From Candidatus Multivorans sp. (lineage in GTDB: Bacteria; Acidobacteriota; Thermoanaerobaculia; Multivoradales; Multivoraceae), in contig OZ245033.1 in NCBI GenBank assembly GCA_965224025.1, forward strand, positions 448,001 to 512,000: a stretch of 64,000 nucleotides of DNA. The letters are read 5' to 3'. Position 1 is the stretch's first letter. Each line of letters opens with the position of its first letter. Shown one piece after another: positions 3,188 to 60,464 of this stretch. The position numbers and the translations under genes were made by a program. Under the pieces are notes generated by a model. That model did no database searches. It saw nothing but the letters and a program-made list of their open reading frames with translations, and was not told the origin of the DNA.

Positions 3188-3276
3188 CGGGCGGTGGATG
3201 GTCGCGACGCGTTCGTGGCACGTTCGATGACCCGTACAGACACTAGGTACCACTGCGAGAACCCGCGCAAGCCGGG
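3188..3276. repeat. 89-bp direct repeat, copy 1 (copy 2 at 6645..6733)
   Basis: Aligned by eye, 2 mismatches. Confidence 0.92.
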
Positions 3277-6343: not shown

Positions 6344-6628
6344 TCATTCTTCGGTGAGGCCGAACCGCTCACGGAGCTCGTCAACGTCCATCGCTATCCC
6401 TTCCCCAGCTTCGACCTGGGCGATCGCCTTCCGCAGCCTCTCGGCATTCTTCGGAGAGCGAAGCAGATAGTCCGTCTCCATCCACGAACTCAGATCACTC
6501 GCCGCGATCAGAGCGACGGGTTCCTTCCCGCGCCGCCGGATCAACACCGGCTCGTGCGTGTCCGTCACCTGGTCCATGAGAGTGGCGAGCTGCTCGCGTG
6601 CGCCGGTGTAGGTGGTTTCCCTGATCAT
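6344..6628 (-). CDS. yefM: Phd/YefM family antitoxin; cognate toxin truncated
   Basis: TYTGAREQLATLMDQV...SWMETDYLLRSPKNAERLRKAI; start re-called at ATG 6628 after GGGAG. Confidence 0.85.
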   Translation of the reverse strand: MIRETTYTGAREQLATLMDQVTDTHEPVLIRRRGKEPVALIAASDLSSWMETDYLLRSPKNAERLRKAIAQVEAGEGIAMDVDELRERFGLTEE

Positions 6629-6644
6629 GGCTTCACTCCCTGGT

Positions 6645-6733
6645 CGGGCGGTGGATGGTCGCGACGCGTTCGTGGCACGTTCGATGACCCGTACAGACAC
6701 TATGTACCACTGCGAGAACCCCCGCAAGCCGGG
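6645..6733. repeat. 89-bp direct repeat, copy 2; includes the putative yefM promoter/operator
   Basis: Matches 3188..3276; two GTAC cores (cgtacagacactatgtacca) recall the TGTACA YefM operator. Confidence 0.9.
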
Positions 6734-6783
6734 GTGCCCGCGTGCAATCCGTGCGCCCGATGACGGGCGCACGGAGTGGTTCA
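6734..6783 (-). repeat. Partial family-B palindromic element plus family-A stub
   Basis: gaaccactccgtgcgcccgtcatcgggcgcacggattgcacgcgggca matches 13807..13854 with one mismatch. Confidence 0.85.
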
Positions 6784-7210
6784 TGCCGGTGTCGATCACC
6801 AGGCGGCAGGAGATGAACATCTCCATGACCAGCCGGCCGTACAGGTCGTAGGCGTTCTCGTAGACGCCCATCTCCTTGCCGAGGTTAGCGGCGTACTCGG
6901 CCCAACCCTCCGTGAAGGCCCCGTAGCCGATCGTCTCGCGCCGGAACCGGGGCAGGTCCTCGCGCTCGTTCGCCAGCGCGAACTGGAAGTGATGCCCGGG
7001 ATCAGCTCGTGTAGATCAGCCCCTGGGCCGAGAACAGGGACCGGTTCTCGAGGTCGGAGAGTTGTAGCGGTACTCGCCGCGCGGGTTCGCCGCGGCGTAC
7101 TCGTCGCCGACCGACGCGATGAGTTTCGCATCGGCGCCGGTGCTCGACCCTCCGCAGGCCGACAGCAGCGGAACAACGACTACGACTACACAGAACGATG
7201 CGGTCTTCAT
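6776..7210 (-). pseudogene. DUF885 family lipoprotein remnant
   Basis: Lipoprotein signal (LLSAC), HELIPGHHFQ, FTEGWAEYA and RLVIDTGMN; large internal deletion, several 1-nt frameshifts, 3' end replaced by a repeat. Confidence 0.8.
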
Positions 7211-10200
7211 GGCTTCAGCGATCGTACATACAGCACCGGAACGACGACCAGGTTCAGGAACGTCGACGTCAAGAGGCCTCCGAGAATGACCTGCGCCATC
7301 GGACTCAGGATCTCGTTGCCCGGGGCGCCGGCAGCCAGCACCAGGGGCACCAGCGCCAGGCCCGCGGTCAACGCCGTCATCAGCACGGGCGCCATCCGCT
7401 GTCCCGAGCCGCGCCGCACGGCTTCGTCCAGCGGCAGCCCCTCGGCGAGCAGCCGCCGGTAGTTGCTGACCAGCAGCACGCCGTTGCGCGTCGCGATCCC
7501 GAACAGCGTCACGAAGCCGATCACGGTGGCAAGCGACAGGACGCCGCCGCCCAGAGCCACCGCGAGCACGCCCCCAACGAGAGCCAACGGGACATTGACG
7601 AGCATGATCAGGGTCTCGCGGTGGCTGCCGAACTCGATGTAGAGGAGTCCGTACATGGCGATCAGGATGAGCACCACCAGCAGGGCCACGGTGGAGACGC
7701 GGCGGCCGGCTTCCTCGAACTGCCCGCCGAAGGTCACGAGGTAGCCGGACGGCAGGTCGACCCCGGCGTCGACGGCGGCTTGCGCCCGCCCCACCGTGCC
7801 GGCGAGGTCGGCGGCCGCCATGTTGGCGGTGACCATCGCCACCCGCTGCGCGTTTTCCCGCCGGATCAGCGACGGTCCGAGAGCGTGCCGGACCTCCGCC
7901 ACGGCGCCCAGCCGAACCAGGTCCCCGGCCGGGGTCGAGACCGGAAGGGCCGCGATCTTCTCGGGCGAGGACCGGAGGCTCGGCGGCAGGCGGACGGCGA
8001 CATCCGACGCCAGACCGTCCTCGACGATCTCGCCAACTACCACACCCTGGAAGAGTGCTTCCACTCCCTCTCCAAGGCCCGCAAGGCCAAGCCCGTGCCG
8101 GGCGATCGTGGTGCGATCGAAGTCGATCACGAGTTGGGGAATCGCCGCCTGCTCCTGGTTCGACAGGTCGACGATGCCGGGCACGGCGCCCAGAACCTGC
8201 TCGACCCGGGAAGCGAGCGTCCGCAGCACCGCCAGGTCGGGCCCGAACACCTTGACCGCGAGATTGGTCCGGGACCCCGACATCATGTGGTCGATCCGGT
8301 GGCTGATCGGCTGCCCGAAGGAGACGGTCGTCCCCGGGATCGTCGCCACGGCGCGGCGCATCTCGGCGACCAGTTCGTCCTTGCTTCGGCCGTCCCCGAG
8401 CGGCGCCAGGACGACCTCCATCTCGGATGCGTTGACCCCCTGCACGTGCTCGTCTTTCTCGGCACGCCCGGTCCGGCGGCTGGTCGAAACCACCTCGGGG
8501 AAGGCGAGGAGCGCTTCCTCCACCTGGCTCCCCAGCCGGTCGCTCTCGGCGAGCGGAATCCCCGGCGGGCTGACGACGGCAACGGTGAGCGATCCCTCGT
8601 TGAACGCGGGCAGGAAGCCGCGGCCCAAACCGGGCACGAGCGCGGCCACGGGCACGACCACGACGACCACCAGCAGGAGAACCGCCCAACGGTGCCCGAG
8701 GCACCAGTCGAGAGTCGGCGTGTACCCCGCTCGCAGAGCGCGCAGGAGCCAGGGCTCGCGGGCACGAAGCACCTTCGCCCGGCCCAGCAGAAGGAGCGCC
8801 AGCACCGGCGTGACCGTCAGCGCCACCACGAACGAGGCCGAGAGCGCCGCGATGAAGGCGAGGCCGAGCGGCCGGAGCAGCCGGCCCTCCAGGCCCGGCA
8901 GGAAGAAGATCGGCACGAAGACCAGAACGACGACCAGCGTGGCGATGAGGATCGGGCTCAGCACCTCCCTCGTCGCCGCGGCGACGACCTCAGCCGCCGG
9001 CCGGCGATCGGCTCTCGGCAGACGGCGCTCCTCCTTCAGCCGCCGGAAGATGTTCTCGATCGCGATGATCGCGTCGTCGACCAGAAGGCCGACCGCGATC
9101 GACAGGCCGCCGAGGGTCATCGTGTCGATCTGAAGGCCGAGGGCCGCGATCACCAGGATCCCGGTGACCAGCGAGAGGGGAATGGCGAACGCCGAAATCA
9201 GGGTCGTCCGGACGCTGCCAAGGAACAACGCCAGGATCACGATGACCAGGATCGCGCCCCAGCCAAGCGCTTCGGAGACGTTCCCGATCGCCACCTCGAT
9301 GAAGTCGGCCTGGCGAAAGTTCTCGCTCTCGAGAACCACGCCCTCGGGGAGCGTCTGCTGCAGCCTCGCCAGAGCCGCGTCGATCGCCCGGGTCAGCTCG
9401 AGCGTGTTGGCCTCCGGCTGCTTCTGCACCGACAGGATGACCGCTGGGCGGTTGCGGTACGACGCCGTGCCGCGAGCCGGCTCGGCGCCCCATTCGACGG
9501 TCGCGACGTCGCCGACCCGCAGAGGGACGCCGCCCGCGACCCGCACCACGGCCGCGGCCACGTCCTCGGGGCTGCGCGCCCGGGTGAGCCCGCGGACGAT
9601 GTGCTCCTGCCCGCCCTCGACGTGGAAGCCCGCCGCCAGACTGCGGCTCGCGGCGGCCACCGCCTCGATGACCTCGGTGAGGGGCAAGCCATTCTGGGCG
9701 AGAGCAGCAGGCCGAACCGTGACCTGGAGTTGACGCCGCTCACCGCCGATCGGGACCACCTGGGAGACGCCGGGAATCGAGAGGAGCGTGCGCCGGACGA
9801 CCGTCTCGGCCACACGCCGCAGTTCCATCGCACTGACGCCGCCTTCCGTTGCCGGCGCCGCGGTCATCGCGATGAACGTGATCTCGCCCATGATCGACGA
9901 GATCGGGCCGAGTTCCGGCGGCTCGGCCTGGGCCGGGAGGTCGACCCGCTGCAGGCGTTCGCTGACGACCTGGCGGGCGCGGTAGATGTCGGTTCCCCAG
10001 TCGAACTCGACCCACGCCACCGAGAGCCCGTCGACGGAGACCGAGCGCAGCCGGCGCACGCCCGGCGATCCGTTGACCGCCGACTCGACCGGGAATGTCA
10101 CCAGGAGTTCGACCTCTTCGGCCGCCATTCCCGGGGCTTCCGTGATCACGGTCACCGTCGGCGCGGAGAGGTCCGGGAAGATGTCCACCGGCAGGGTCGC

Positions 10201-10299
10201 GACAAAGAGAGCTCCGGCCAGGGTGAGGAGCACGGCGCCGGCGATCACCAGCCACCGGTGGCCGAGGGAGAAGCGAAGCAGTCTTTCGAGGGGTCCCAT
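7207..10299 (-). CDS. Heavy-metal efflux RND permease (CusA/CzcA family)
   Basis: PVDIFPDLSAPTVTV, GLLVDDAIIAIEN and RMAPVLMTALTAGLALVP; about 1030 aa from ATG 10299. Confidence 0.93.
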   Translation of the reverse strand: MGPLERLLRFSLGHRWLVIAGAVLLTLAGALFVATLPVDIFPDLSAPTVTVITEAPGMAAEEVELLVTFPVESAVNGSPGVRRLRSVSVDGLSVAWVEFDWGTDIYRARQVVSERLQRVDLPAQAEPPELGPISSIMGEITFIAMTAAPATEGGVSAMELRRVAETVVRRTLLSIPGVSQVVPIGGERRQLQVTVRPAALAQNGLPLTEVIEAVAAASRSLAAGFHVEGGQEHIVRGLTRARSPEDVAAAVVRVAGGVPLRVGDVATVEWGAEPARGTASYRNRPAVILSVQKQPEANTLELTRAIDAALARLQQTLPEGVVLESENFRQADFIEVAIGNVSEALGWGAILVIVILALFLGSVRTTLISAFAIPLSLVTGILVIAALGLQIDTMTLGGLSIAVGLLVDDAIIAIENIFRRLKEERRLPRADRRPAAEVVAAATREVLSPILIATLVVVLVFVPIFFLPGLEGRLLRPLGLAFIAALSASFVVALTVTPVLALLLLGRAKVLRAREPWLLRALRAGYTPTLDWCLGHRWAVLLLVVVVVVPVAALVPGLGRGFLPAFNEGSLTVAVVSPPGIPLAESDRLGSQVEEALLAFPEVVSTSRRTGRAEKDEHVQGVNASEMEVVLAPLGDGRSKDELVAEMRRAVATIPGTTVSFGQPISHRIDHMMSGSRTNLAVKVFGPDLAVLRTLASRVEQVLGAVPGIVDLSNQEQAAIPQLVIDFDRTTIARHGLGLAGLGEGVEALFQGVVVGEIVEDGLASDVAVRLPPSLRSSPEKIAALPVSTPAGDLVRLGAVAEVRHALGPSLIRRENAQRVAMVTANMAAADLAGTVGRAQAAVDAGVDLPSGYLVTFGGQFEEAGRRVSTVALLVVLILIAMYGLLYIEFGSHRETLIMLVNVPLALVGGVLAVALGGGVLSLATVIGFVTLFGIATRNGVLLVSNYRRLLAEGLPLDEAVRRGSGQRMAPVLMTALTAGLALVPLVLAAGAPGNEILSPMAQVILGGLLTSTFLNLVVVPVLYVRSLKP

Positions 10300-10310
10300 G
10301 CCCCAAGCCC

Positions 10311-11996
10311 TTAGTGGACGTGACCCTCGGCCTCGCCGCTGGCCATCAAGGACGAGCGGCGGATCGCGTCGCCGCCGCGGGTCACCAGGCGCTGGCCGTG
10401 CATCAGGCGCTCGACGCGCGCCCGGTCTCCCTGCCGCTTGAGCACGGTCACCCTCTGGCGTACGAAGCTCTCCCCGGAGAGCTGCAGGAACACGACCGGT
10501 ACGCCGCCGTCGTCGACCAACGCCGACTCGGGAACGACGATGCCGGTCTCCTCCTCGTCGAGGAGGATCTGCGCCGCGACAGTCGATCCCAGTGCGATGC
10601 CGGCGCCGGCAAGGCCCGGTGCCTGCAGCAGAACGGTGACGGTACCGGTCCGCGGCGAGACTTCCGGCGCGATCGAGACGAGGGAGAGCCCCTCCTCGAC
10701 TCTCACCGGCTCGCTCTCCGGATCCTCGATAACGAGGCCCCGCACACCCGAGGCGGCGAGCCGGCGCGCTCCCTGAGGCGGCAACGCGACCTCGATCCAC
10801 GCGAGGTCCGTTCGGACCAGACGGGCGAGGGAGTCGCCGGCGGCCACCGTCGCGCCGGGCGTTGTGCTGACCTCGGCGATCTGGCCGGCGAACGGGGCCT
10901 TCAGGGAGATGCCGATGCCGTCCGCTCCACCCTCGCGGGAGGAACGGGCCGACTCGAGGTCGCGTTCCGCCGCCCGGTGTCGCGCCTCGAGTGTCCTGAC
11001 CCGAACCCGAGCCTCCTCCGCCTCGCGCTCGCTGGTCGCTTCGAGAGCCAGAAGTTCTTCCAGGCGCAACCGCCGTGCATGGGCGCTCTCCAGCTCGGTC
11101 GCCAGCGTCTCGAGCTCCGCTTCGAGCGTCGCCAGACTCCGCTCGGCCGCGACCAGCGGGACCACGCGGAACAGGCGGGAGTCCCGCTGCACGCGGCGGC
11201 CGACGAACGGCCAGGCGCTTGAGGCGCCCGGCGGCTGCACGACGCCGTCAACCTGTGCGGTCACCGTGCTCTCGCCACCCGCCGGCGGACGGAAGGTCGC
11301 CAGGCCGGCCACGCTCTCGGCCAACCGCCCCTCCTCGACCCAGGCGGTCGCGAAGGAACTCTGCCACTGCTGCTCCTTGAGGAAGGAGACGGGCTCGCCC
11401 CCGTCGGACCCGGTCGGCGCCGAGGAAGCAACCAGGAGGCCACCCGGGTCGTCAGACGTCCCAACCCGGACCCGGCCGCCCCGGATCTCCTCGGTGCCTT
11501 CCGCATCGTGGATGCGAAACACCACATCGGCGTCGCCGGCCTGCCGCGGCGTCACCTGGATGTCGAAGATCCCGGGCCGGAGCACCTCATCCGCGCCAAA
11601 CACCTGCTCTTCGGAAGCGTCTACGAGCACGATCTCCACTCTGCCGTCCACCACGGGCGTGAAGTCGGCGAGCCGCGTCACGTGGGTGTGAGCCTTCGCC
11701 GCCTGGCCCGCCACCAGAGCGTCGACCTCGGGGAAGACCTCGAAGCGCTCGCCCCAGGCGGTGACGGCCCAGGTTTCGCTCTCGGCGGGCGGCGGCTCGG
11801 CCGGCGGAGCGGCACCGCAGGCGAGCAGGAAGAGCGCGGGGAGCGCGCCAACCCAGCTCCGCCGCGAGCGGGCGCAGCACGGGCCAGGCACACGGCGCTT
11901 CGATCCTGGGAACGCGGGCATCCTGCCCGCATCCGGAGGGGTTCGGCTCCGGGCCTGCTCACACATCTTCGTCATCATCGTTCCACTCCACGTCAT
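10311..11996 (-). CDS. RND efflux periplasmic adaptor (membrane fusion) lipoprotein
   Basis: Lipobox LLAC, LKAPFAGQI lipoyl motif, VVPESALVDDGG, C-terminal GHVH; operon position. Confidence 0.9.
   Translation of the reverse strand: MTWSGTMMTKMCEQARSRTPPDAGRMPAFPGSKRRVPGPCCARSRRSWVGALPALFLLACGAAPPAEPPPAESETWAVTAWGERFEVFPEVDALVAGQAAKAHTHVTRLADFTPVVDGRVEIVLVDASEEQVFGADEVLRPGIFDIQVTPRQAGDADVVFRIHDAEGTEEIRGGRVRVGTSDDPGGLLVASSAPTGSDGGEPVSFLKEQQWQSSFATAWVEEGRLAESVAGLATFRPPAGGESTVTAQVDGVVQPPGASSAWPFVGRRVQRDSRLFRVVPLVAAERSLATLEAELETLATELESAHARRLRLEELLALEATSEREAEEARVRVRTLEARHRAAERDLESARSSREGGADGIGISLKAPFAGQIAEVSTTPGATVAAGDSLARLVRTDLAWIEVALPPQGARRLAASGVRGLVIEDPESEPVRVEEGLSLVSIAPEVSPRTGTVTVLLQAPGLAGAGIALGSTVAAQILLDEEETGIVVPESALVDDGGVPVVFLQLSGESFVRQRVTVLKRQGDRARVERLMHGQRLVTRGGDAIRRSSLMASGEAEGHVH
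11905..11936. repeat. Family-A REP-like palindrome inside the adaptor CDS
   Basis: cctgggaacgcgggcatcctgcccgcatccgg is the exact reverse complement of intergenic 34269..34300. Confidence 0.9.
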
Positions 11997-13228
11997 GGCT
12001 GCGGCTCTCCTCCCGCCCGAGCAGCCGTGAGCAGCGCGGCCGCATCTCCGCCGGACCCCGAGAGTCGATCCAGCTCGCGGTGGGCGGCGAGCGCCGCTTC
12101 GTGCAGATCGAGCATCGCCAGTTCCGCTTCGGTCACCGAGCGGTGCGTTTCGAGCAGATCGGTCACGCCGATCTCGCCCTGGCGAAAGGCCGCCTCGGCG
12201 CCATCCAGCATCCGGTCGCTTCGGCTCAGTTCCTGTCGAGCCTCAGTGAGAGCCGCGGACAGCCGAGCGAAGTTGTCGCTGGCGGCGCCGCGGGAAACGG
12301 TCACTTCCCGCTCGATGAGTTCGAGCCGCGCCCGCGCGGCCTCCAGGCCGGCATTCGCGGTCTTGCGGGATGCCTGCCGGCGAGCGAAGAACGGCAGGGA
12401 CCAGGCGAGTCCAAAGATGGGCCCGTCGACAGCGCCCGGCGTGAGATCCTGCCGCCGCCAGCCCACGGTGACCTCTGGGGAAGCAATGAACCGCCGCGTC
12501 GCTTCCCGAGCGAGTTCCGCGGCGGCAAGGTCCGCTTCGGCGGCGCGCACCCCGGTACCCACCCCATCGAGCGACGGGGCGTCAGGCGGGTCCGGCAGAA
12601 CCGGGTACGCAGCCGCCGGAAGATCGGGGCGCCAGGCGGCTGCCTCGGCTCGCGCCCCTTCGCTCGCCACCTCCGCCAGAACAACGCGGGACCTGAGCGT
12701 GGCGGCAGCCAGCCGGAGGCGATTCGCTTCCAGTCCCGAAGCTTCTCCCCGTTCGGCCCGCGCTGCCTCTCGCTCCGCCAGCGACTCGACGCGCTCCGCC
12801 TGAGCCGCCAGTAGCTGGCGGCGGGCATTGGCCACCGCCCAGCCGGCGTAGGCCTCCCTCATCGCCAGCCGGTAGGTCCGGAACTCGTGCGCCAAACGCG
12901 TCCGAACGGCCTGTACCTCCGATTCGCGAGCCTCGATCTCCGGCCCCCGCTCAGCCCCCGGGATCTGCCAGGAGACCAGGATGTCGGTCTGCCCGATCGG
13001 CCCAGCCGGATCCTCCCGAATGCCTTCCAGCACGGGGTTTGCGAACGTCCTGGCCGCAGTCACGCGGGCCTCCGCGTGCGCCAGGGCCTGGACGCTTTCG
13101 CGCACGGCCGGGTGCTTCTCGTCGAGCGCCGAGAGGTACTCGGCCTCGGTGAGAACCCGCGGCTCCTGGGCCCCGCCGGCAGCGGCGATGAGCCACGCCA
13201 AGAGACTGATCAGACGGAAACGATGCAT
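11993..13228 (-). CDS. TolC/CzcC family outer-membrane efflux protein
   Basis: Signal peptide, helical repeats, AFRQGEIGVTDLLE; ATGA overlap with the adaptor gene. Confidence 0.88.
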   Translation of the reverse strand: MHRFRLISLLAWLIAAAGGAQEPRVLTEAEYLSALDEKHPAVRESVQALAHAEARVTAARTFANPVLEGIREDPAGPIGQTDILVSWQIPGAERGPEIEARESEVQAVRTRLAHEFRTYRLAMREAYAGWAVANARRQLLAAQAERVESLAEREAARAERGEASGLEANRLRLAAATLRSRVVLAEVASEGARAEAAAWRPDLPAAAYPVLPDPPDAPSLDGVGTGVRAAEADLAAAELAREATRRFIASPEVTVGWRRQDLTPGAVDGPIFGLAWSLPFFARRQASRKTANAGLEAARARLELIEREVTVSRGAASDNFARLSAALTEARQELSRSDRMLDGAEAAFRQGEIGVTDLLETHRSVTEAELAMLDLHEAALAAHRELDRLSGSGGDAAALLTAARAGGEPQP

Positions 13229-13288
13229 GCTGACTCCTTTCCACGTCGAGGTCTTGGGCTCGAGATGAGCCCGGCCACGAGCCGTGGA

Positions 13289-13654
13289 TCAGAGAAGCAG
13301 GGAGCAGTGGGATCGGAACAGCGGTGTCGGCGGTCCGCGTCTGGACGAGCCGTCGAAGCGCGATCCCTCGGCGAGGGTTGCCGTCCGCAAGGCTGACGCG
13401 GGAAGCACGGCCGCGAAGGCGGGGCCGGGACCCGGGATCCGCGCCTGACCGTCGAACCACGCATCGTGATCGTGGTCCGGCATCGCCTCAAGATCGTGGC
13501 GATGGCCGTGGGTGGCCGCCCTCGCCAAGTCGGCGAGTTCATGCTCGTGCGCAGCGCCGTGGGGGCCGTGATGTTCGACCGTCAGGTGCAGACCAACCCC
13601 GAGTGCGGCGGCGCCCGGCGCCATCCATCCCAACAGGATGGCGACTGCAACCAT
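13289..13654 (-). CDS. Small His-rich membrane/secreted protein leading the efflux operon (CzcI/DUF2946-like)
   Basis: Hydrophobic N-terminus, HHGPHGAAHEH...HGHRH...HDHD, C-terminal RGPP..LFRSHCSLLL; start uncertain. Confidence 0.6.
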   Translation of the reverse strand: MVAVAILLGWMAPGAAALGVGLHLTVEHHGPHGAAHEHELADLARAATHGHRHDLEAMPDHDHDAWFDGQARIPGPGPAFAAVLPASALRTATLAEGSRFDGSSRRGPPTPLFRSHCSLLL

Positions 13655-13755
13655 GCGCTTGAGCGGGGCGCTCACAAGAGGCACTGTGACAGAAGCGCCA
13701 CGGTTGGTCAACGAAACCCGCAGTCCACGAACGGCGATACGCTTGCCGCTTGCAC

Positions 13756-16116
13756 ATGCCGAAACCAAACCTGGGAACCCGTGTGGCGCGACCTCGCGCC
13801 ACACGCGAACCACTCCGTGCGCCCGTCATCGGGCGCACGGATGGCACGCGGGCATCCTGCCCGCATCCGGCCCAACGGGCCGGTCTGCTTGGCGTTGTCC
13901 CTTCATACCTGCGGACGCCCCTGCGTCTGTTCTGCGCCGCTCTGGCCTGCTCGATCTTCGCTGCCTGCGGCGGCGAGTATCCGCCGCCGCCCTCGACGGA
14001 GCAGATCCCCTTCACCGAGACGATCCACGGGGTCGAGTTCCAGGATCCCTACCGCTGGCTGGAGGACCAGGACAGCCCGGCAACCCGCGCCTTCATCGAC
14101 CGGCAGAACGAGTACGCGGAGCAGATCCTGGGCCAGCCGCCGGAACGCGATTGGGCTCGACGGCGGCTACGCGAACTCATGGGAACGCCGGCCATCGGCT
14201 CGCCCAACAAGGCGGGCGACTACGAGCTCTTCACCCTGCGCCGGGCCGGCGAGGAACTGGCCTCGATCGTTCGCCGTGAGGCGCCGGAGGATGCGCCCGA
14301 GGGTGCACCCGGGCCGATCGACCCGGCGCGCGACTACGAGGTCGTGGTCGACCCGGCGGATCTCGGCGGCGACTACACGCACCTCGACGTCGTGTCCGTT
14401 TCGCCCGACGGGCGGCTCCTGCTCTACAACGTGCGAGTCGGCGGCGAGGACGAGACCACGGCCCGCTTGCGCGACCTCGAGCAGAACGTCGACCTCGACT
14501 TCGAGCTGCCCCGGGCGTTGAACGACCAGGCGTTCTTCGCGAAGGACGGCAGCGGCATCTACTACACGGTCCGCGACCGCAGCGAGGGATCGCGCGTTCG
14601 TTTCCATACCTTCGGCACCGACCGGGCGGACGATGCTCTCGTGTTCGGCGAGGGAATCGGGCCGCGGAGCTTCGTCCGCGCCGAGCAGCTCGACGACGCG
14701 TTGCTGCTCGTCGGCGTTCAACACGGATGGGCCCGTAGCGACCTCCATCTCGTGGAGGTGGGAACCTGGAAGGCGACGCCGCTCGTCACCGACACGGAGG
14801 CGCGCTTCAACACCCACACCGCCGACGGCAGGCTGTTCGTGCGCACGAACCTGGACGCGCCGCTGAACCGGCTGATGGAGGTCGACCTCGACCGGCCGGC
14901 GGTCGCGAGCCCGGGTGGCGCGTTGTCGCGCCACACGCGAACCAGTCCGAGCGCCCGTCATCGGGCGCTCGGATGGAACTGGCGCGAGGTCGTGCCCGAA
15001 GCCGACGACGTGCTGCAAGGCGTCGCCGTCATCGACGGCAAGCTCTACCTGACCTACCTGCACCATGTGGCGAGCCGCATCCGGGTGTTCGAGTTCGACG
15101 GCACGCCGGCCGGCGAGGTCGAAGTGCCCGAACACCACAGCGCCAGCATTCGCGCGGCTGGGGAGGGCAAGGCTCTTCTCTCGCTGGTCTCCTTCCTGCA
15201 GCCGCCCGTGACCTGGCTGCTCGATCTGGAGGCGGGCACGCGCGAAATCTTCCGCGAGCCCCAAGCGCTCTTTTCGGCCGACGGCTACACCGTCCAGCAG
15301 GTGCGCTACACCTCGAAGGACGGCACGTCCGCGCCGATGTACGTCGTCCACCGCGAGGACTTCGAATCCGACGGAAGCGCTCCCGCCCTGCTCAACGGCT
15401 ATGGCGGCTTCAACGTCTCCCTCACCCCGCGTTTCAATCCGCTGGCGGCCCTGTGGATCGAGGCCGGCGGCGTGTACGCCGTCGCCACGCTCCGGGGCGG
15501 CAGCGAGTACGGCGAGGAGTGGCACCAGGGCGGGATGCTCCACAACAAGCAGAACGTCTTCGACGACTTCATCTCGGCCGGCGAATGGCTGATCGCCGAG
15601 GGCTACAGCGACCCCGAGCGCCTGGCGATCCACGGCGCGAGCAACGGCGGACTGCTCGTCGGCGCCTCCTTGACTCAACGCCCCGATCTCTACCGCGCGG
15701 TGCTCTGCGGCTTCCCCGAACTCGACCTGATCCGCTTCTACACCTTCACCGACGCGAACAACATGCCCGCCCTGCTCGAGTACGGCGACGGAGAGATTCC
15801 CGACCAGTTCGAGTCCCTGCGCGGCTTCTCGCCCTATCAGGCGGTCAAGGACGGCGTCGCCTACCCCGCCGTCATGCTGACCCAGGGCGACCGCGACACC
15901 CGGGTGCCGCCGCTCCAGGCGCGCAAGATGGCGGCCCGCCTCCAGGCGGCGACGTCTTCGGGCCTGCCGGTGATCCTGCGCTATCACCCGTACGCCGGGC
16001 ACGCCGCGAGTCGGGGTCTGCCGACGTCGGAGCGGATCGAGTTCGTGGCGGCGGAGGCTGCGTTTCTGTTCACGCAGACGGGGTTGGGGGCGGCAGGGAC
16101 GGCATCGGGTGACTGA
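13756..16116 (+). CDS. Prolyl oligopeptidase (S9A) lipoprotein with in-frame repeat insertions
   Basis: [20 protein letters not shown] (catalytic Ser), DTRV, AGH; lipobox FAAC; start uncertain. Confidence 0.92.
13771..13870 (+). repeat. Family-B double-hairpin element (13779..13844) nested inside a family-A REP
   Basis: ctgggaac + 66-nt element B + cac + gcgggcatcctgcccgcatccgg. Confidence 0.85.
14911..14976 (+). repeat. Family-B double-hairpin element, in frame inside the peptidase gene
   Basis: Aligns end to end with 13779..13844; stems GTGGCGCG/CGCGCCAC and TCCGAGCGCCCG/CGGGCGCTCGGA. Confidence 0.92.
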
Positions 16117-16352
16117 CTGCAGATCGAAATGCGGAGCTATGCAAGACTTCGACATCGCTCCAGAGGCGGTGCCGAAGTTCGGCACAACGCCCGTTCCATC
16201 CCGAATCCGGGCAGTCTCCACCCGGACGAGGGGCGGTGCCGATCCCGCCATGCGGCGTGCTAGGTTCGCCACGCGGCATCTCTGTTCACGGAGTGGTCGT
16301 CGATGCTAAGCTGCACCGTTGCTCTTCCTGAACCACCGAGGAGCCCGATCCA

Positions 16353-16598
16353 ATGAGTGAAGCGCTTCTAGATGCCCCGCCCGGCAAGGAGAAACAGATC
16401 TTCTTCGAGTCCTTGGAAGCCGCCGAGGAAGCGGCTCGTCTGCGAAAGAGGGGCGCGACCGAGTCCGGCTTGGTGATTCGCGTTGAGCGTTCGCCATATG
16501 GTGCCGGATATGTCGTGCGCTCGGTTCCGCTTGGTTTCCTCAGCAGGCCGCGGCTCCGGCCACTTCTCCGGCCGCTAGCGCGAAACTACGGCCAGTGA
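16353..16598 (+). CDS. Small hypothetical protein
   Basis: 81 aa; GAGGAG RBS; stop overlaps a short GTG-initiated ORF. Confidence 0.45.
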   Translation: MSEALLDAPPGKEKQIFFESLEAAEEAARLRKRGATESGLVIRVERSPYGAGYVVRSVPLGFLSRPRLRPLLRPLARNYGQ

Positions 16599-16693
16599 CC
16601 GAAGAGAAGGAGTTGACCAGGCTCGGCGCGATAAGAGAGCTCATCGAACTCGAGCAACGCTGCGGACTCGTCTAGCTTGCCGCAGTAGCGTCG

Positions 16694-16760
16694 CTGCTTC
16701 GGCACGCGCCGCGCCACCTGTGAACCAGTCCGTGCGCCCGCCATCGGGCGCACGGATGGC
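16694..16760 (+). repeat. Degenerate family-B element between convergent genes
   Basis: gaaccagtccgtgcgcccgccatcgggcgcacggatggc. Confidence 0.8.
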
Positions 16761-16789
16761 AGGCCGGCACACCCAGTGGCTGGCGGGGG

Positions 16790-19409: not shown

Positions 19410-19455
19410 TGGCCGCCTTCGGCGGCAGCGGGCCAGAAGGCCCGCGCACCCAGAG
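19410..19455 (+). repeat. Family-C REP-like palindrome
   Basis: gcgggccagaaggcccgcgcacccagag; also at 22233 and inverted at 22361. Confidence 0.88.
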
Positions 19456-19545
19456 ACACACCGTGCCGCTCCAGCCTGCGCTACACGGGCAGAGGGTATC
19501 GTCGCCGGCACATCACCTCGGAGTCGTCCACAAGGAGTACTCAGA

Positions 19546-21140: not shown

Positions 21141-21408
21141 GGCGGGCTCCTCAGGAGGTTCGGTGCTCGTGTGTTGGCGGCGGTCGCCGGGCAGCGACTG
21201 AACGTGCCGGTATCCGTAGCCGCTCGTAGGATGGGTTTGTCTTGGGTGTAAGGACGACCGTCGTTGCCGTTTTGTTCCTGTCGGCTGGGGTTGCGCCGGC
21301 GGGGAGCGCGTGCCTGTCCTTCTTCCCGAAACCGGCTAGAGGGGAACCGATGAAGATTGAACATTTCAAGTGCGCGGTCGCCGACCTCGCCGAGGGAAGG
21401 TGGAAGCG

Positions 21409-22158
21409 ATGAAGATTGACCACTTCATGTACGCGGCCGCCGACCTCGACGAAGGAATGGCGTTGGCCGAGGATGTCTTCGGCGTGGCGCCGGCGTTCGG
21501 CGGCGCCCACGAAGGGCTCGGAACGCGCAACGCGTTGCTTGCCTTGCGAGCTGGCGCCGCAGAACGCAGCGAAGCGAGTTCGGGGCGCAAGCTCGCAGGC
21601 GCGGACGGGATGGGCGGAAACACCGAGCCTGCGAGGGGTTTCGGGGCGCTGGGCGACACGTACCTCGAGATCATCGCGCCGGACCCGGCGCAGTCGGTGG
21701 AGAGCCAGATGGTCGAGGGCATGGCCGAGCTGAGTGCCGGGGGGCTGGTGACGTGGGCGGCGCAGGGCGATCTCGTCGTCACGAAGGGCTTGCTCGAGGA
21801 GGCGGGGATCTCGTCGGCCGGCCCGGTGGAAACGCGGCGGCGCACGGCCGACGGCGAGCTGCTGGTGTGGGATCTGCTGTTTCCGCAAGGTAGCGGCTAC
21901 GGGATGCCCTTCTTCATCGACTGGCGGGAGTCTCCCCACCCGGCCACGACGACGCCGGTGGGCGGGGAGTTGCGGTCGTTCGGGATCTCGACGCCGGACG
22001 CCGAACAGCTTGACGCGGTGTTGGCGAGTCTTGGGCTGGGCGTGGAGGTGTCGGATGGGGAGCCGGTGATGCGGGTCGTGATCGAGGGGGCGAAGGGTCC
22101 GGTGGAGTTGGTTTCTACGGAGGAGAGTCGGGGGCTGCAGCCATCGTCAAGGCGTTGA
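21409..22158 (+). CDS. VOC/glyoxalase-like family protein with a 35-aa in-frame insertion
   Basis: IDHFMYA, GGAHEGLGTRNALL, YLEIIAPDP, MPFFIDW, HPA. Confidence 0.88.
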   Translation: MKIDHFMYAAADLDEGMALAEDVFGVAPAFGGAHEGLGTRNALLALRAGAAERSEASSGRKLAGADGMGGNTEPARGFGALGDTYLEIIAPDPAQSVESQMVEGMAELSAGGLVTWAAQGDLVVTKGLLEEAGISSAGPVETRRRTADGELLVWDLLFPQGSGYGMPFFIDWRESPHPATTTPVGGELRSFGISTPDAEQLDAVLASLGLGVEVSDGEPVMRVVIEGAKGPVELVSTEESRGLQPSSRR

Positions 22159-22232
22159 TGGGATTCGGAGACAGCCGACGTCGCTGCGATGGAGGTTTCT
22201 GCCGTACCCGGCATCGTCTCACTGCGGGCGAT

Positions 22233-22407
22233 GCGGGCCAGAAGGCCCGCGCACCCAGAGATAAGGCGGTGCTGCGAGCAAAGCTCTGTTCTGCAAACGT
22301 CACCGCGTCACTGCGAGCGGCAAGAGTGCAGTAGAGACTCTCGCCGCGGCGAAGGCGTCGCTCTGGGTGCGCGGGCCTTCTGGCCCGCTGCCGCCGCAAG
22401 GCGGCCA
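22233..22407. repeat. Inverted pair of family-C REPs (REPIN-like)
   Basis: 22233..22260 and 22361..22388 are reverse complements separated by 100 nt. Confidence 0.85.
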
Positions 22408-25711: not shown

Positions 25712-27298
25712 TCAGAACAGTTCCTGCTGCGCCATCGGCTTGCCGCTGTACGGATCGTTCATCGTCGGCAAGCGTGGCAGTCTCCCGTCGAAGTACTCGC
25801 TGATCGGCCATAGCTGCATTCTCCTGTAGGGCTGACCGGACACGCTGATCGTGCCAGCCTCTGCCGCTTCCGCCCGCGCTGCACGCGAGCCGACTGGTTC
25901 CAGTGTGACGAAGCAGCCGAGAGCCGCTTCGTCGCGGTCTGTGACATGGCGGAAGTCCCGCAACGCTCCGAGATGGAATCCACCGCCCTTGATCTGCGCC
26001 AGCGCGAGACGGGAATCGTAGTCGTCCGGCTGAGCGGCGATCACGGCGCGACCGTCCACGCCGCCGTCCGCAACCTGCTTCATGTTCGGCGCGAAACCGG
26101 GGAGCCGCGTCACCGCCCACGATTCAAAGCTGAACGGCTGCTCGGTTGCCAGCTTGCGCGCCGATGCGAGATCGACCGGGATCCCCTTCGTCGGGATCGT
26201 CCGGTTCTTCAGCCGCTTCTCACGGATCAGGTCGATAGCGAATGACGAAATGTCGATCCCGGCCCACTGTCGGCCGAGACGCTGCGCCGCTTCAATGGTC
26301 GTACCGCAACCGCAGAACGGATCGAGAATCAGGTCGTCAGGGTTACTGCTCGCTTCGATGATCCGCTCCAGCAACGCGCGGGGCTTCTGGGTCGGGTAAC
26401 CCATCCGTTCCTTCGCCTGGGCGCCGATCGGCCCTATGTCCGTCCATAGGTCCTGCAACGGCCGGCCCTTGGCCTCGTCCAAATAGCGCTTGTAGGCCGG
26501 GACGCGGCCCGGCGCTGTTTGTACAACCCGTCCTTCGTCGATCATCCGCTGCATCCGCTCGCGGGAGTAGGCCCAATAGCGCGTTACGCCCAGTACCTCG
26601 TACTGCGGGTTGCCCTTCGCTGCACCGCCGCGCCCAGTCATATCGCTGAGTCGATAGCGCCGTCCAGTGTCTTCTTCGACATAGCGGTAGAAACCGTCGA
26701 CGTATTGGTCATCGTATGGCGTGTACAGCGGATTCCAAGCCCAACCGTCGCCCCTCGAGTAGTAGAGGACGCGATCCAGTACACGTCCAAATTGTCGTCT
26801 TCCCTGCGCGCCGTCGTTGTGGCTGCTGGTTCGCTTCCATCCGATTTCGGATCGGAAATTCGGCACACCGAAGATCGCGTCCATGACGATTTTGAGATAG
26901 TGGCTCGCGGTCGGGTCACAGTGCAAGTAGATCGAACCTGTTGGCTTGAGGAGCCGGTGCATGTGCTCCAAGCGCTCCGCCATGTAGGTCAGGTAGGCGA
27001 GCATCCCGGACGGGCCGATGGCGTGCCGTAGGCCCACTATCGCGTCGTGGGCGCGTCGTGCGGGCGCACCCTCGTAGGCCGCGTAGCGGTCCGCCGCGGC
27101 TTCGTCCCACGCCCATGTGTCGCTGAACGCCCGGTACTGCGCGTCAGCGCCGCCGCGAGCCGAGTAGAGGATGTTGTAGTCGGCCTTCGAGTTGAATGGC
27201 GGATCGAGGTAAATCAGGTCTACGGACTGATCGTCCCATCGCTGCATCCAGTCGAGGCAGTCACCGTAGTACAGCGTGCCCGCGTCCGGTGGGTTCAT
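25712..27298 (-). CDS. Beta-class N6A/N4C DNA methyltransferase with a C-terminal Mrr-like nuclease domain
   Basis: DLIYLDPPF, YPTQKP, LDPFCGCGTT; tail FESWA...DGGVDG...AQIKGG. Confidence 0.92.
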   Translation of the reverse strand: MNPPDAGTLYYGDCLDWMQRWDDQSVDLIYLDPPFNSKADYNILYSARGGADAQYRAFSDTWAWDEAAADRYAAYEGAPARRAHDAIVGLRHAIGPSGMLAYLTYMAERLEHMHRLLKPTGSIYLHCDPTASHYLKIVMDAIFGVPNFRSEIGWKRTSSHNDGAQGRRQFGRVLDRVLYYSRGDGWAWNPLYTPYDDQYVDGFYRYVEEDTGRRYRLSDMTGRGGAAKGNPQYEVLGVTRYWAYSRERMQRMIDEGRVVQTAPGRVPAYKRYLDEAKGRPLQDLWTDIGPIGAQAKERMGYPTQKPRALLERIIEASSNPDDLILDPFCGCGTTIEAAQRLGRQWAGIDISSFAIDLIREKRLKNRTIPTKGIPVDLASARKLATEQPFSFESWAVTRLPGFAPNMKQVADGGVDGRAVIAAQPDDYDSRLALAQIKGGGFHLGALRDFRHVTDRDEAALGCFVTLEPVGSRAARAEAAEAGTISVSGQPYRRMQLWPISEYFDGRLPRLPTMNDPYSGKPMAQQELF

Positions 27299-28281
27299 GC
27301 CGAGCGAGCGCCGGACGGCAGGCCGTTGTCGGCGATCAGGTCACGGTACTGGAGCCGCTTGCCCGCCAGCCCCTCGGTGACGGACGCCATTTGCGCCAGC
27401 GTGTCGAGATCGCGGAAGTTGTGACGGCCCGCGAACTGGTTGACGTAGCGCTGTAGATGCTTCGGTGAGAGCTTGTGGTACACGCCCTTGTGGGCGCGCT
27501 TGAGCATCGACCAGAAGCTCTCGATCGAGTTCGTGTGAACCTTGCCCGCAACGTACTCGCCGACCGAGTGCTTGACGGTGCCGCGCTCGTACTCGGTCAA
27601 ACCGCTGTACGCCCCCGTATCGTCCGTGTAGACCGTTGCGCCGGGTTCGACGTGCTCACGGACGAACGCTTGCAGGGTCTCGCCGTCGGTCGAACGGACG
27701 ACACGCGCCGCCACCATGCCGGTCTCGCGGTCCTTGACGCCCACCACCGCTGTCTTGCCGACAGAGCCACGGCCTTCGAGGGTCTTGCGCTTCTTCGCGT
27801 GCATATTCTTCCGCAGACCGCCGAAGTACGCCTCATCGGCTTCTGCCGGTCCCTCGAAGCGCACGGTCGGCCCCGAGTCGCTGAACTCGCGGATGCGCTG
27901 GAGCATGAACCACGCGGTCTTCTGAGTGACGCCCAGGTCACGGTGGATCTTCATCGACGACACGCCCTTGAGGCTCGTTGTGTCGAGGTAGATCGCGTAC
28001 AGCCACTTGAGCAGAGGCAGCTTCGACCGCGCCATCACGGTGCCGGTCTTCACCGAGAAGTACCGCTTGCAGTCGCGGCAGCGGTACGGCATCTTCGCGT
28101 GGCTGCACTCGTGGTTGTTGTCGGTGCCGCAGTGCGGGCAGTAGCGCTCGCCGTCCGGCCAGACGATCGCCTCGAACCACTGCCGCGCCGCTTCCTCATC
28201 GGGGAACATCCGCTGCAAGTCGAACAGCGTGATGCCCTTCCGGTGAGCCTTGCCGGGTGCCTTGAGTTCTGTGTCGTTCAT
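27295..28281 (-). CDS. IS1595 family (ISXO2-like) DDE transposase
   Basis: Zn ribbon CPHC...CRDC, HTH region, EADEAY / YTDD / NSIESFW; ATGA coupling to the methyltransferase. Confidence 0.95.
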   Translation of the reverse strand: MNDTELKAPGKAHRKGITLFDLQRMFPDEEAARQWFEAIVWPDGERYCPHCGTDNNHECSHAKMPYRCRDCKRYFSVKTGTVMARSKLPLLKWLYAIYLDTTSLKGVSSMKIHRDLGVTQKTAWFMLQRIREFSDSGPTVRFEGPAEADEAYFGGLRKNMHAKKRKTLEGRGSVGKTAVVGVKDRETGMVAARVVRSTDGETLQAFVREHVEPGATVYTDDTGAYSGLTEYERGTVKHSVGEYVAGKVHTNSIESFWSMLKRAHKGVYHKLSPKHLQRYVNQFAGRHNFRDLDTLAQMASVTEGLAGKRLQYRDLIADNGLPSGARSA

Positions 28282-28480
28282 CGCTTCTCCCTCCGTCAAC
28301 CGTGAGGTATACCCTACCGGACGGAGAGCCAGTTTGTCAACCTAGAGATATAATCCCCCACGCAAACTGCCGCCGCTGAAACCCTCGCGGATCTGAACAC
28401 AGGACAGCAGGTCCAATCCAACCGCACGGTCTCTGGAGTGGTACCGCGCTCTGCGCGGCCCTAGAAGCCCGACTTCCGCT

Positions 28481-34268: not shown

Positions 34269-34300
34269 CCGGATGCGGGCAGGATGCCCGCGTTCCCAGG
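34269..34300. repeat. Family-A REP-like palindrome between convergent genes
   Basis: ccggatgcgggcaggatgcccgcgttcccagg. Confidence 0.9.
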
Positions 34301-34321
34301 AACGGAGCACCGGCCGGCGGT

Positions 34322-38834: not shown

Positions 38835-38863
38835 GATGCGGGCAGGATGCCCGCGTTCCCAGG
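38835..38863. repeat. Family-A REP-like palindrome
   Basis: gatgcgggcaggatgcccgcgttcccagg. Confidence 0.88.
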
Positions 38864-38901
38864 ATTCCGTGTGGAACGAGCGTCGCCAACGGGCGACGGA
38901 G

Positions 38902-52127: not shown

Positions 52128-52373
52128 CTTCAAGTCGCCGCTCATCGAACCGGACGTGCGGTTTTCCCGCATCCGGCTCTCGGACGGGATCAAGCCTTCG
52201 CCCACGGAAAGCGTGCGGTGCGCACGGTCAGGTGAGTGAGGCCGTACTCTTTCCAGAGCATCTCGTCGGGGAAGCGCACGTGCTTCGCCGATCTCACCTT
52301 GTGCTTACGGCACAGCCACTGTCGCAGCCGCCGGGTCGCGTGCCGGTCCACCGCGGAGTAAGACGGACTCACC
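52128..52373 (-). mobile_element. Group II intron 3' remnant (end of the maturase ORF plus domain V)
   Basis: RRLRQWLCRKHK domain-X motif, then GAGCCGGATGCGGGAAAACCGCACGTCCGGTTCGATGAGCGG. Confidence 0.88.
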
Positions 52374-58745: not shown

Positions 58746-60464
58746 GTGGCTAGCGCGGACGAGAGCGCCCGGAGCGGCGGAGCAGACGACAGGAAGGATC
58801 AGGCTGCCGCCAAGGCTCGCCCGCTCGAGGCCGAACAGGCTGCGGCGAAGAAGGCTGCGGCCGAAGCGAGGCGCAAGGCGGCTGCAGCCGAGCGCGCGGC
58901 GAAGTCCGCTGCCGAGAAGAAGGCGGCGGCTCAGCAGGCCGCTCGGGCGGAGAGATCGTCGTCGGCCGCCGCCGCCAGAGCGGAAAAGGTCGCCGAGACC
59001 AGGAAGGCGGCTGCCGCGGCTGCCGTCAAGGCCGCGACGGAACGCCGCGCTGCCGTGAGGAAGGCGAAGAGAGCGGTTGCAGCGGGAAACACGGCCGCGG
59101 AGAAGGCAGCCGCCGCCGCCGCCGCGCGTAAGTCGGCCGCGCAGCAGGCTGCGAAGGACGAGAAGACCACGGCCGCGCTGGTTCTGAGGGCTGAGCAGGA
59201 GGCCGAGGCGCGGAGGGCGGCGCAGGACGAGGCGGTCAAGAAGGCTGCCGAGTTGTCGCGTTTGGCGAAGGCGGCGGCCGGGCGCCTGCGTACCGCGGAA
59301 ACGACCGCGAAGCGAGCGGATCGTGAGGCCGCTGCCAAGGCCGCGGCCGCTGCCAAGGCCGCTCTGGAGGCTGCCGAGAGCAGAGCGGCGCTCGAGGAAG
59401 CCCGGAGCACCGAAGCTGCGGAGCGTGAAGCCGCCGACACCGCCATGACCGCCGCGGTGGAGGAGAAGGAGGCGGCGAAAATTGCGACTCGTGACGCCGC
59501 TGCCTGCAGGTCCGCGGCGGTGCGAGCAGAACGCAAGGCCGTCAGCACCTCCGAGCTCGCAGCCAAGGGACGGAAGGAAGCCACCGCCCGGAAGAAGGAA
59601 GCCGCGCAGTCGGCGAGACTTGCCGTGAGGACGGGCGCCGCTGCCGAGAAGGCCGCGAAGTTGGCGGCCGACCGCAAGGCGGCGGCTCAGGCGGCGGCCA
59701 AGGACTCCGCGGCAAAGGGAGTCGTGGCGCGCAAGGCCGCACGCACTGCGGCGGCCCGCGCAGGGGCGCTGCAGAAGGCGACCAAGGCCGCGGCCGCGGC
59801 CAAGGTCGCGGCCCGAGAGGCTCAGCGGGCTGCCGCGGCCGCCGAGAAGCGGGTGGCCAAGGCCCGGGCGGCGGAGGAAGCCGAGGCGAAGAGGCCTGAG
59901 GTGGAGGCAGCCGCCGCAGCGGAAACCGCCGTCAGGGAGGCTGCCGAACGGGAAGCCGCGCGGCGGCTCGCGGCCAAGCAACGGCTGGCCAGGAAAAAGG
60001 CGGCTCAGAAGAAAGCGCCTCCGAGGAAAGCGCCGACGCTGCTCCTCAGGCCGCAGCGCACGGGCGACGGCCGGGGGAACAACTCTCTTCTCAAGAGCGC
60101 CGACATCGACATGGAGTTGGTGCGGGAGCGGCTGGAGGAGAAGCGGCGGGAGCTGTTCGGTCGCTACAACCGTGACCTCCATGCCGGCCTGAAGGCGTCG
60201 TCGGGCGAAGGGTCGGAGGATCTCGTCGACCGGGCGAACCACGCCTACAGCCGGGAGTTGAACTTCTCACTGTCGGACAGCGACGGCATTCTGCTCAAGC
60301 GGATCGACGAGGCGACGATCCGTCTCGACGACGGCAGCTTCGGGGTCTGCGTCCACTGCCACGCTGAAGTCGGCCGCGCCCGCCTCGAAGCGGTGCCCTG
60401 GGCCTCCTATTGCATCAACTGCCAGGAACTCGAGGAGAAGGGTCGGCTTCCGAGAGAAGAGTGA
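58746..60464 (+). CDS. dksA: DksA/TraR C4 zinc-finger protein with a long Ala/Lys-rich N-terminal extension
   Basis: EDLVDRA coiled-coil tip, CVHC...RLEAVPWASYCINC; GAGG RBS before GTG 58746. Confidence 0.82.
   Translation: MASADESARSGGADDRKDQAAAKARPLEAEQAAAKKAAAEARRKAAAAERAAKSAAEKKAAAQQAARAERSSSAAAARAEKVAETRKAAAAAAVKAATERRAAVRKAKRAVAAGNTAAEKAAAAAAARKSAAQQAAKDEKTTAALVLRAEQEAEARRAAQDEAVKKAAELSRLAKAAAGRLRTAETTAKRADREAAAKAAAAAKAALEAAESRAALEEARSTEAAEREAADTAMTAAVEEKEAAKIATRDAAACRSAAVRAERKAVSTSELAAKGRKEATARKKEAAQSARLAVRTGAAAEKAAKLAADRKAAAQAAAKDSAAKGVVARKAARTAAARAGALQKATKAAAAAKVAAREAQRAAAAAEKRVAKARAAEEAEAKRPEVEAAAAAETAVREAAEREAARRLAAKQRLARKKAAQKKAPPRKAPTLLLRPQRTGDGRGNNSLLKSADIDMELVRERLEEKRRELFGRYNRDLHAGLKASSGEGSEDLVDRANHAYSRELNFSLSDSDGILLKRIDEATIRLDDGSFGVCVHCHAEVGRARLEAVPWASYCINCQELEEKGRLPREE

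Follow-up and report, generated by a model that had tools for sequence, protein, structure and literature searches.

A 69-nt palindromic element lies in frame within a gene for a prolyl oligopeptidase (POP) of family S9A in Candidatus Multivorans sp., on the 64,000-nt stretch of contig OZ245033.1 that was analyzed here and is referred to below as the window. The element, at 14910-14978, is very probably a copy of a non-autonomous 68/69-nt repeat resembling repetitive extragenic palindromes (REPs), which was inserted into the POP gene and is read through as a passenger loop. Palindromic repeats lying in frame inside genes have been described before in other bacteria; the literature searched contained no account of this particular repeat, which is not proof that there is none. 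A preliminary description of the same DNA had recognized a structured, dispersed repeat in frame in an otherwise intact S9A peptidase, and Pfam, a gap in a solved homolog and an alignment of 62 relatives all bear this out. The features of the gene and of the repeat copies in the window are as follows.

13909..16116, forward strand: S9A POP gene with a lipoprotein-type N-terminus, start uncertain; the maximal open reading frame (ORF) begins at 13750
14910..14978, forward strand: 69-nt double-hairpin element CCCGGG...GGATGGAA, in frame in POP (covariance model 88.8 bits, E 1.4e-17)
14912..14937, forward strand: hairpin 1 of the POP copy, whose 11-pair stem contains a single G.A mismatch (14914/14935) and whose loop is TTGT (14923-14926), from RNA and DNA folds
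14946..14973, forward strand: hairpin 2 of the POP copy, a 12-pair stem with the loop TCAT and an A-T pair at 14950/14969 instead of the family's usual T-A
13778..13846, forward strand: second full 69-nt copy, directly upstream of the POP signal peptide and nested in a type-A repeat (98.7 bits)
13847..13870, forward strand: right half of that type-A repeat, CGCGGGCATCCTGCCCGCATCCGG, host of the upstream copy; the left half, CCTGGGAA, is at 13770-13777
16687..16765, forward strand: partial copy with hairpin 2 intact and hairpin 1 lacking its 5' arm (59.1 bits)
6739..6822, reverse strand: partial copy consisting of linker and hairpin 2, located where a DUF885 gene fragment breaks off (56 bits)

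The POP gene and its 23-residue insert

The POP ORF at 13750-16116 matches PF02897 (E 5.4e-59) and PF00326 (E 1.2e-48) in Pfam, and its best structural match is PDB 2bkl, the solved enzyme of M. xanthus (E 2.4e-113). Both parts of the expected architecture, an N-terminal beta-propeller and a C-terminal alpha/beta-hydrolase domain, were found. In 107 aligned sequences, S578 (within GASNGG), D663 and H698 fall in invariant columns and, assigned by position, would form the Ser-Asp-His catalytic triad; because these three residues are invariant, the enzyme looks intact.

Opposite the insert residues, the HMMER alignment leaves a gap of exactly 23 columns in 2bkl. Among the 62 aligned relatives (P numbers denote these proteins), 10 carry the insert (P0002-P0011) and 52 share the gap, including proteins from genomes that do carry the repeat family, for example, P0014 (5,438,760-bp chromosome) and P0013 (4,979,003-bp chromosome). 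The first condition that the preliminary description had named as refuting it, the same 23 residues in orthologs from genomes without the repeat, therefore did not refute it. In codon-aligned form, the element corresponds to 14908-14976 (23 codons), offset by 2 nt; deletion of these positions from the window gene gives DRPAVANWREVV, as had been proposed, and this is exactly what relative P0019 reads. In the AlphaFold2 model (107 sequences, mean pLDDT 90.4, pTM 0.90), the insert occupies residues 334-356, between strands 321-325 and 358-362, and residues 334-353 are the sole internal stretch with pLDDT <50. The insert thus lies in the only low-confidence internal loop of the model and most likely adds a floppy or disordered 23-residue surface loop to the enzyme.

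As a nucleic acid, the segment is strongly structured. The 75-nt stretch containing the POP copy forms two hairpins, with an energy of -48.7 kcal/mol (z -4.95) for RNA and of -34.4 kcal/mol (z -6.71) for DNA, and in each case none of 200 shuffles folds as well. A strongly folding RNA, with flanks that join seamlessly to the ortholog sequence, would fit a segment spliced from the RNA like an intron or from the protein like an intein, so that the enzyme never carries it. We regard such removal as extremely improbable: no Rfam family matches the element, either at the gathering score across the window or at E up to 1 within 13650-15100; 23 residues are far too short for an intein; and a stop-free frame across the insert in nine protein clusters, together with a +1 frame restoration in a pglX-like gene (see below), is expected only of a translated segment. 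The preliminary description had considered excision at either the DNA or the RNA level. The patchy distribution of the insert on the gene tree would allow for loss at the DNA level. Nothing speaks for removal at the RNA level: the frame is open in nine clusters, and there is no Rfam match.

The upstream copy complicates the start of the gene. From GTG 13783, which is within this copy, to the lipoprotein signal peptide there is no ATG, GTG or TTG, and in the stretch 13750-13910 only CTG codons (13885 and 13909) follow GTG 13783 before the signal peptide. In the database, the protein of the window gene (P0002, 786 aa) is given ATG 13756 as its start, so that it includes an in-frame translation of the upstream repeat; similar repeat-derived N-terminal extensions are seen in the relatives P0006, P0012 and P0016. 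Gene callers extend ORFs through repeats of this family, and the extensions in the POP records are probably artefacts of this kind.

The repeat family and its genomic context

In the window, a repeat search returned a 73-nt family with the reference at 13775-13847, members at 14907-14979 (88%) and 16690-16762 (73%), and an inverted partial member at 6732-6782. A 31-nt core pattern, with up to three mismatches allowed, has three matches in the window and none in 100 shuffles, and a covariance model built from 104 copies finds four copies and no others. The copies therefore lie where they had first been described, apart from a shift of the POP copy by 2 nt (from 14908-14976 to 14910-14978), and the 69-nt length of both full copies holds. 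All four are located within 10 kb (6739-16765), three of them within 3 kb around POP (upstream, inside and downstream), a clustering that may reflect local hopping or a local hot spot. The pair of an upstream and an in-gene copy is also found at locus L006 (L numbers denote collected loci), where the upstream copy at 13778-13846 has its ortholog. An origin of the POP copy by local duplication of the upstream copy was considered and rejected, as the two are only 88% identical and belong to different subfamilies. No plasmid or phage sequence in the collections searched by blastn matched the upstream copy.

Beyond the window, a scan of one genome per species with a hairpin-2 pattern detected at least 106 loci, all in metagenome-assembled genomes of Acidobacteriota: Ca. 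Multivorans (placed within Thermoanaerobaculia by NCBI), Thermoanaerobaculia, Holophagales, Acidobacteria and Vicinamibacteraceae. The family counts given here are those among the matches listed, which comprise 110 unique copies, the four of the window included. Of these, 104 were aligned; the other six (a second copy in L002, L047, L086, L096, and window copies 16729 and 6748) have hairpin 1 absent or rearranged. Three of the six are distinctive: at L047:2950-3110, an unrelated 28-nt segment replaces hairpin 1 in a tandem repetition; at L086:230-380, the loop of hairpin 2 is inverted relative to its flanks; and in the second copy of L002 (4960-5075), some 45 extra nucleotides separate the two hairpins.

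The family unit consists of two unrelated GC-rich hairpins joined by a GAACCA linker, over 68/69 nt. Across the 96 distinct rows of the alignment, 98.4% of cells are paired and six pairs have changed on both sides; none of 500 shuffles reaches any of five pairing measures, and sliding the partners against each other lowers pairing to 26-54%. Both stems covary across the family, as the preliminary description had anticipated. It is important to note that the search pattern itself dictated 11 of the 12 pairs in hairpin 2, which are therefore uninformative on this point; most of the covariation is in hairpin 1, which the pattern left unconstrained. At the position of the G.A mismatch of the POP copy (14914/14935), for example, 56 rows have GC, 23 have UA and 11 are unpaired.

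Stem 2 reads TCCGTGCGCCCG/CGGGCGCACGGA at 13814-13841 and TCCGAGCGCCCG/CGGGCGCTCGGA at 14946-14973, so the swap from T-A to A-T at 14950/14969 can be read directly from the sequence. It had been taken for a compensatory change made in POP, and this interpretation was not sustained. At this pair, the rows have UA in 68 cases, UG in nine, AU in six, CG in six and other combinations in seven, and L073 and L075 have A.A intermediates. The AU cases, six rows in all, comprise the three POP copies together with L005, L027 and L036; L027 and L036, which are unrelated, non-POP loci, combine the A-T variant with the hairpin 1 G.A mismatch of the POP copy, and L005 has A-T alone. Over 70 nt, L027 and the POP copy share 97% identity. 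Because the same variant is present at non-POP loci, the swap appears to predate the POP insertion, and the A-T pair is, on this comparison of copies, a subfamily trait that was not made in the gene.

Genomic context was examined for the 84 copies with at least 3 kb of surrounding sequence, using a crude gene finder based on a codon log-odds score. Three of these copies, representing two events (POP and a PglX-like methylase), are inside genes. The other 81 lie between tandem genes (52), between convergent genes (26), between divergent genes (2) or in a setting of unknown type (1), according to a re-count of the context rows. Most copies (67/84) are within 200 nt downstream of a stop codon, at a median of 35 nt, and with respect to the upstream gene 36 have the same orientation and 45 the opposite one. 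An ORF that spans the copy and has coding signal on both sides was found only for POP (window, L006 and L083) and for L075; borderline C-terminal cases are window copy 6748 and L034, where the copy lies close to the end of an ORF of the APH family. When a 41-residue query around the insert was searched against 5.8 billion protein clusters, with longer proteins considered and E up to 1, nine proteins were returned and all nine are POP carriers; the lack of any non-POP protein with the insert peptide in this search is weak evidence of absence.

The second in-gene event is at L075, where an ORF of 1386 codons encoding a PglX/MmeI-like methyltransferase contains a 68-nt copy. In related PglX-like proteins, the linker before the DPAMGSGAFL motif either lacks an insert (e.g., P0128-P0135) or includes a type-A repeat, translated as PGNAGVPPASGE (P0122-P0127); the linker of L075 holds this type-A repeat and, after GGGAA, the 68-nt element. 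What keeps the frame is one extra C downstream, in the type-A hairpin of L075, which reads CCCC, compared with CCC in 48 of 49 type-A hairpins. Between the element and this extra C, the protein is read in a shifted frame, with TRASRP in place of NAGVPP.

These observations bear on the proposal that the element is of the kind of the Rickettsia palindromic elements (RPEs), adapted to coding regions in length and sequence and decorating proteins in frame as its normal mode. Both in-gene events are indeed in frame, all three forward frames are open in the upstream copy of the window, and copies are read into N-terminal extensions by gene callers. Yet the 94 copies whose length and flanks could be parsed by pattern measure 68 nt in 57 cases, 69 nt in only 29, and 67 or 66 nt in four cases each; a frame-preserving length is therefore not a trait of the family. 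Nor is a habit of sitting in genes, given two in-gene events among 84 copies and a peptide search that returned only POP carriers (9/9). The pglX copy needed a +1 change to stay in frame, and in-frame survivors are expected anyway from selection against disrupted genes. An RPE-like element had been proposed in the preliminary description; as an account of how this family normally behaves, this now seems very improbable.

Target sites, gain and loss

Nested repeats that are found both empty and filled delimit the module as CCCGKGTGG...GGATGGCA. Neither terminal inverted repeats nor a target duplication are seen at the element in the 94 parsed copies, and one end is not an inverted copy of the other. 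On the left, these copies are flanked by GAA in 75 cases and by CAA in four, the POP site being of the CAA kind; the 3' end of the element is GGCA in 56, GACA in 13, GGAA in 12 and GGCG in eight; and the right flank varies (CG in 52, GG in 15, CC in 10, and others). The flanking AC motif of the POP copy, with GC on one side, had been described as an apparent target duplication. The letters are present, but they are the last A of the flank or of the element plus the next base, and the conserved left flank and element end leave no duplication.

Across the collected DNA, the type-A site CCTGGGAA^CGCGGGCATCCTGCCCGC was found empty 15 times and filled 30 times, and the type-B/E site GCCGGCC-AGAA^GGCCGGC was empty 12 times and filled 27 times. 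The empty sites of the window are the following.

11903-11933; 34269-34312 (reverse complement); 38835-38865 (reverse complement): empty type-A repeats
19417..19456, forward strand: empty type-E repeat GCGGGCC-AGAA-GGCCCGC-GCACCCAG, the loop of which holds the element at other loci
22222-22261; 22361-22398 (reverse complement): further empty type-E repeats

When the element was removed in silico, the junction fell in the apical loop of the best hairpin at 55 of 94 sites, and the reconstituted empty sites had a mean folding energy of -6.86 kcal/mol, compared with -4.35 for 544 nearby controls. The POP site, GCCAA^CTGG, is itself within a mini-hairpin, CGCCA-AC-TGGCG, formed by the codons GCC-AAC-TGG-CGC.

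A sequence of events can be proposed on this basis. A single-strand cut-and-paste reaction of the HUH/Y1 type, like that of IS200/IS605 or of REP-associated tyrosine transposases (RAYTs), would have placed a 69-nt, stop-free variant in POP, with the hairpin-loop site CGCCA-AC-TGGCG in the POP codons serving as the target. The variant would then have been read through as a basic, disordered 23-residue loop that left the enzyme intact, because its length is a multiple of three and it landed in a loop between two propeller strands. The POP copy would be a passenger, and its compensatory pair inherited from its subfamily. We put forward the single-strand reaction only tentatively, as a mechanism that is possible rather than probable.

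The history of the site was traced on a POP tree of 23 proteins, eight of them carriers, built with the insert removed. Carriers and non-carriers are interleaved: P0005, with the insert, is sister to P0014, without it, and P0015, without it, is sister to P0003 and P0007, which have it. The tree needs six changes of the insert, strongly supported branches alone force at least two, and the approximately unbiased (AU) test rejects a single clade of carriers (log-likelihood difference 146, p 1.6e-52). A quick tree of 58 rows agrees. P0011, within an insert-free clade, also bears 23 extra residues at this position, 9 of the 23 being as in the others; this could be either a decayed copy or an independent event.

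Against this scattered distribution stands the near-constancy of the copy itself. The window, L006 and L083 share a 67-nt core without a single difference, and the 249-nt flanks differ at 16 to 28 positions (6-11%); none of the 23 third codon positions of the insert differs, compared with 12-18 of 83 in the flanks, and the only difference within the insert is at the junction codon, AGC vs AAC. As a rough estimate, the chance of no change at 10% divergence is about 1e-3 for 67 nt and about 0.015 per pair for the 42 positions free of the search pattern. Since carriers and non-carriers are interleaved and the copy is nearly unchanged, either filling or clean emptying of the POP site must have happened repeatedly, or selection holds the copy in place. 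The hairpins bring AAC repeats close to one another, and slippage between these could also lead to clean loss. Two other routes to the same pattern were considered. Gene conversion from the main family was rejected as the cause of the conservation, as the POP copies keep their private TTGT loop and the rare A-T/G.A variant; and spread of the POP copy by homologous recombination is unlikely, as sequence differences among carriers start within about 25 nt of the junction.

If repeated filling and clean emptying of the POP site were taken to its full extent, an active single-strand mobile repeat would repeatedly enter and cleanly leave hairpin-mimicking codons of an essential-looking enzyme without ever breaking the frame. 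We consider this unlikely. Were it true, related species would differ by a reversible 23-residue loop, a transposon-driven protein-loop polymorphism, and the intact nucleotide sequence would be kept because only intact hairpins are excisable or otherwise selected.

A further reading is that the host keeps the POP copy for a function of its own, as a protein-bound or ribosome-pausing hairpin in mRNA or DNA or as a useful basic propeller loop, so that the conservation would reflect purifying selection and not youth. The unchanged core and third positions in three genomes fit this idea, and so does the protein: a single residue has changed in the 22 insert positions of the eight carriers in the tree, and about 13 changes are estimated at the mean rate of the protein with a branch-length sum of about 0.59 per site. 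However, the close relatives P0012-P0016, some of them sisters of carriers, lack the insert; the loop is predicted to be disordered; the insert of P0011 matches at only 9 of 23 residues; and no binding partner or motif was identified. On balance, a host function seems quite improbable.

Several observations weigh against the view that the POP copy is a passenger of a mobile REP-like family. The 196 ORFs that lie within 1.3 kb of the copies and the 37 ORFs of the window include no match to a Y1/HUH transposase or RAYT, for which the preliminary description had suggested a search. Other mobile genes do occur near copies, namely, an rve fragment (L029), IstB (L046) and a phage-type integrase (L040), and an IS1595 transposase is present in the window; these form no pattern. 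The element has no GTAG or CGTC end tag: its consensus starts with CCCG and ends with GGCA, and CGTC is found in it only at the loop junction of hairpin 2. In IS608-type elements, the paired end hairpins are alike, whereas the two hairpins of the element are dissimilar. Conservation across the family is modest: in 15 orthologous-looking pairs, the unconstrained part of the element is 95.6% identical compared with 92.5% for the outer flanks, and higher in 11 of 15. No DNA of an empty POP site was present among the collected loci, so gain and loss are indistinguishable there. We infer translation of the insert from the kept frame, the restored pglX frame and the position of the loop, and the extra C of L075, within a run of C, is either a compensating +1 or a homopolymer assembly error.

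Relation to known repeats and wider significance

REPs are among the closest known systems. Like the REPs described in PMC3733652, the element is GC-rich and palindromic, of high copy number (at least 106 loci), extragenic in 81 of 84 copies, near stop codons and seldom between divergent genes (2/81). REPs are preferentially located near 3' ends, behind genes that are convergent or unidirectional, and intragenic REPs in "REP-decorated" proteins encode 20-30 residues in known proteins (PMC3733652); occasional translated intragenic copies are thus common to both. In the same account, G-T pairs in REP stems are taken as a hint of transcription (PMC3733652), and the element has T.G in 9 of 96 rows at the variable pair of stem 2. 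The differences are that the element lacks the GTAG/CGTC tag and consists of two unrelated hairpins, unlike the one palindrome of 20-40 nt, or the inverted dimer, that PMC3733652 describes. No RAYT was found among the 196 ORFs near its copies or the 37 of the window, and its host is an uncultured Thermoanaerobaculia group. It also differs from a REPIN, in which the same REP occurs twice, inverted, and forms one long hairpin; its own hairpins are unrelated in sequence and fold separately. From classical MITEs (miniature transposable elements with inverted repeats), it is set apart by the lack of terminal inverted repeats and of target-site duplication.

RPEs and other in-frame MITE fusions are summarized in a review (PMC10969869). 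As described there, RPEs are about 150 bp in size, and nearly half of them, from three of ten families, are in ORFs (PMC10969869). The element resembles them in being palindromic, in frame in unrelated enzymes and read as an extra peptide thought to be compatible with the fold; by that description, the family differs in its length of 68/69 nt, in its two in-gene events among 84 copies and in that most copies are not a multiple of three. With IS200/IS605 ends and their miniature derivatives, and with REP/RAYT systems (see PMC3333891, PMC8266576 and PMC6006769), the element shares subterminal hairpins, insertion 3' of a short fixed sequence, and the absence of terminal inverted repeats and target-site duplications; a preference for sites prone to become single-stranded is a further likeness. 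Its left and right hairpins are dissimilar, in contrast to IS200/IS605, and no cognate TnpA was found among the ORFs near the copies. Finally, insertion sequences that target REPs have been described (PMC1525189). The nesting of one insertion in an older palindromic repeat is similar, but the invader in the present case is a 68/69-nt non-coding repeat and not a full insertion sequence.

Several other features of the window were observed. On the reverse strand at 6347-7015, the partial repeat copy marks the end of a DUF885 fragment of 74 residues (profile positions 371-444 of 532), and the same open frame then continues into a Phd/YefM antitoxin. A direct repeat of 89 nt (98% identity) is located at 3188-3276 and 6645-6733, about 3.5 kb apart; this region looks like a rearrangement or an inserted cassette. 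At 21343-21457, a 56-nt tandem duplication (86% identical, 59-nt spacing) is at the start of a glyoxalase-like ORF. The IS1595-family transposase (27295-28299) adjoins an N6/N4 DNA methylase on the reverse strand (25712-27298), and a ResIII/helicase ORF is at 44260-46668. A group II intron match in Rfam, at 42 bits with a gathering score of 40, lies on the reverse strand at 52129-52181 between the genes for a nucleoside hydrolase and a phosphoglucomutase. At 58881-59920, there are several Ala/Lys-rich direct and inverted repeats of the GCCGCNGCCAAGGCC type, probably a low-complexity coding region.

For annotation, the family carries a warning, as gene callers extend ORFs through its repeats and the record of the window POP starts upstream of one. 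The finding adds a well-resolved REP-like family, from an uncultured lineage of Acidobacteriota, to the short list of palindromic repeats that are translated inside enzymes. The filled and empty sites in three contexts, the nested, +1-rescued insertion in the PglX-like gene and a POP pattern that goes beyond one event provide natural experiments, through which the choice of sites (hairpin loops with GAA), the precision of departure and the tolerance of the protein become testable.

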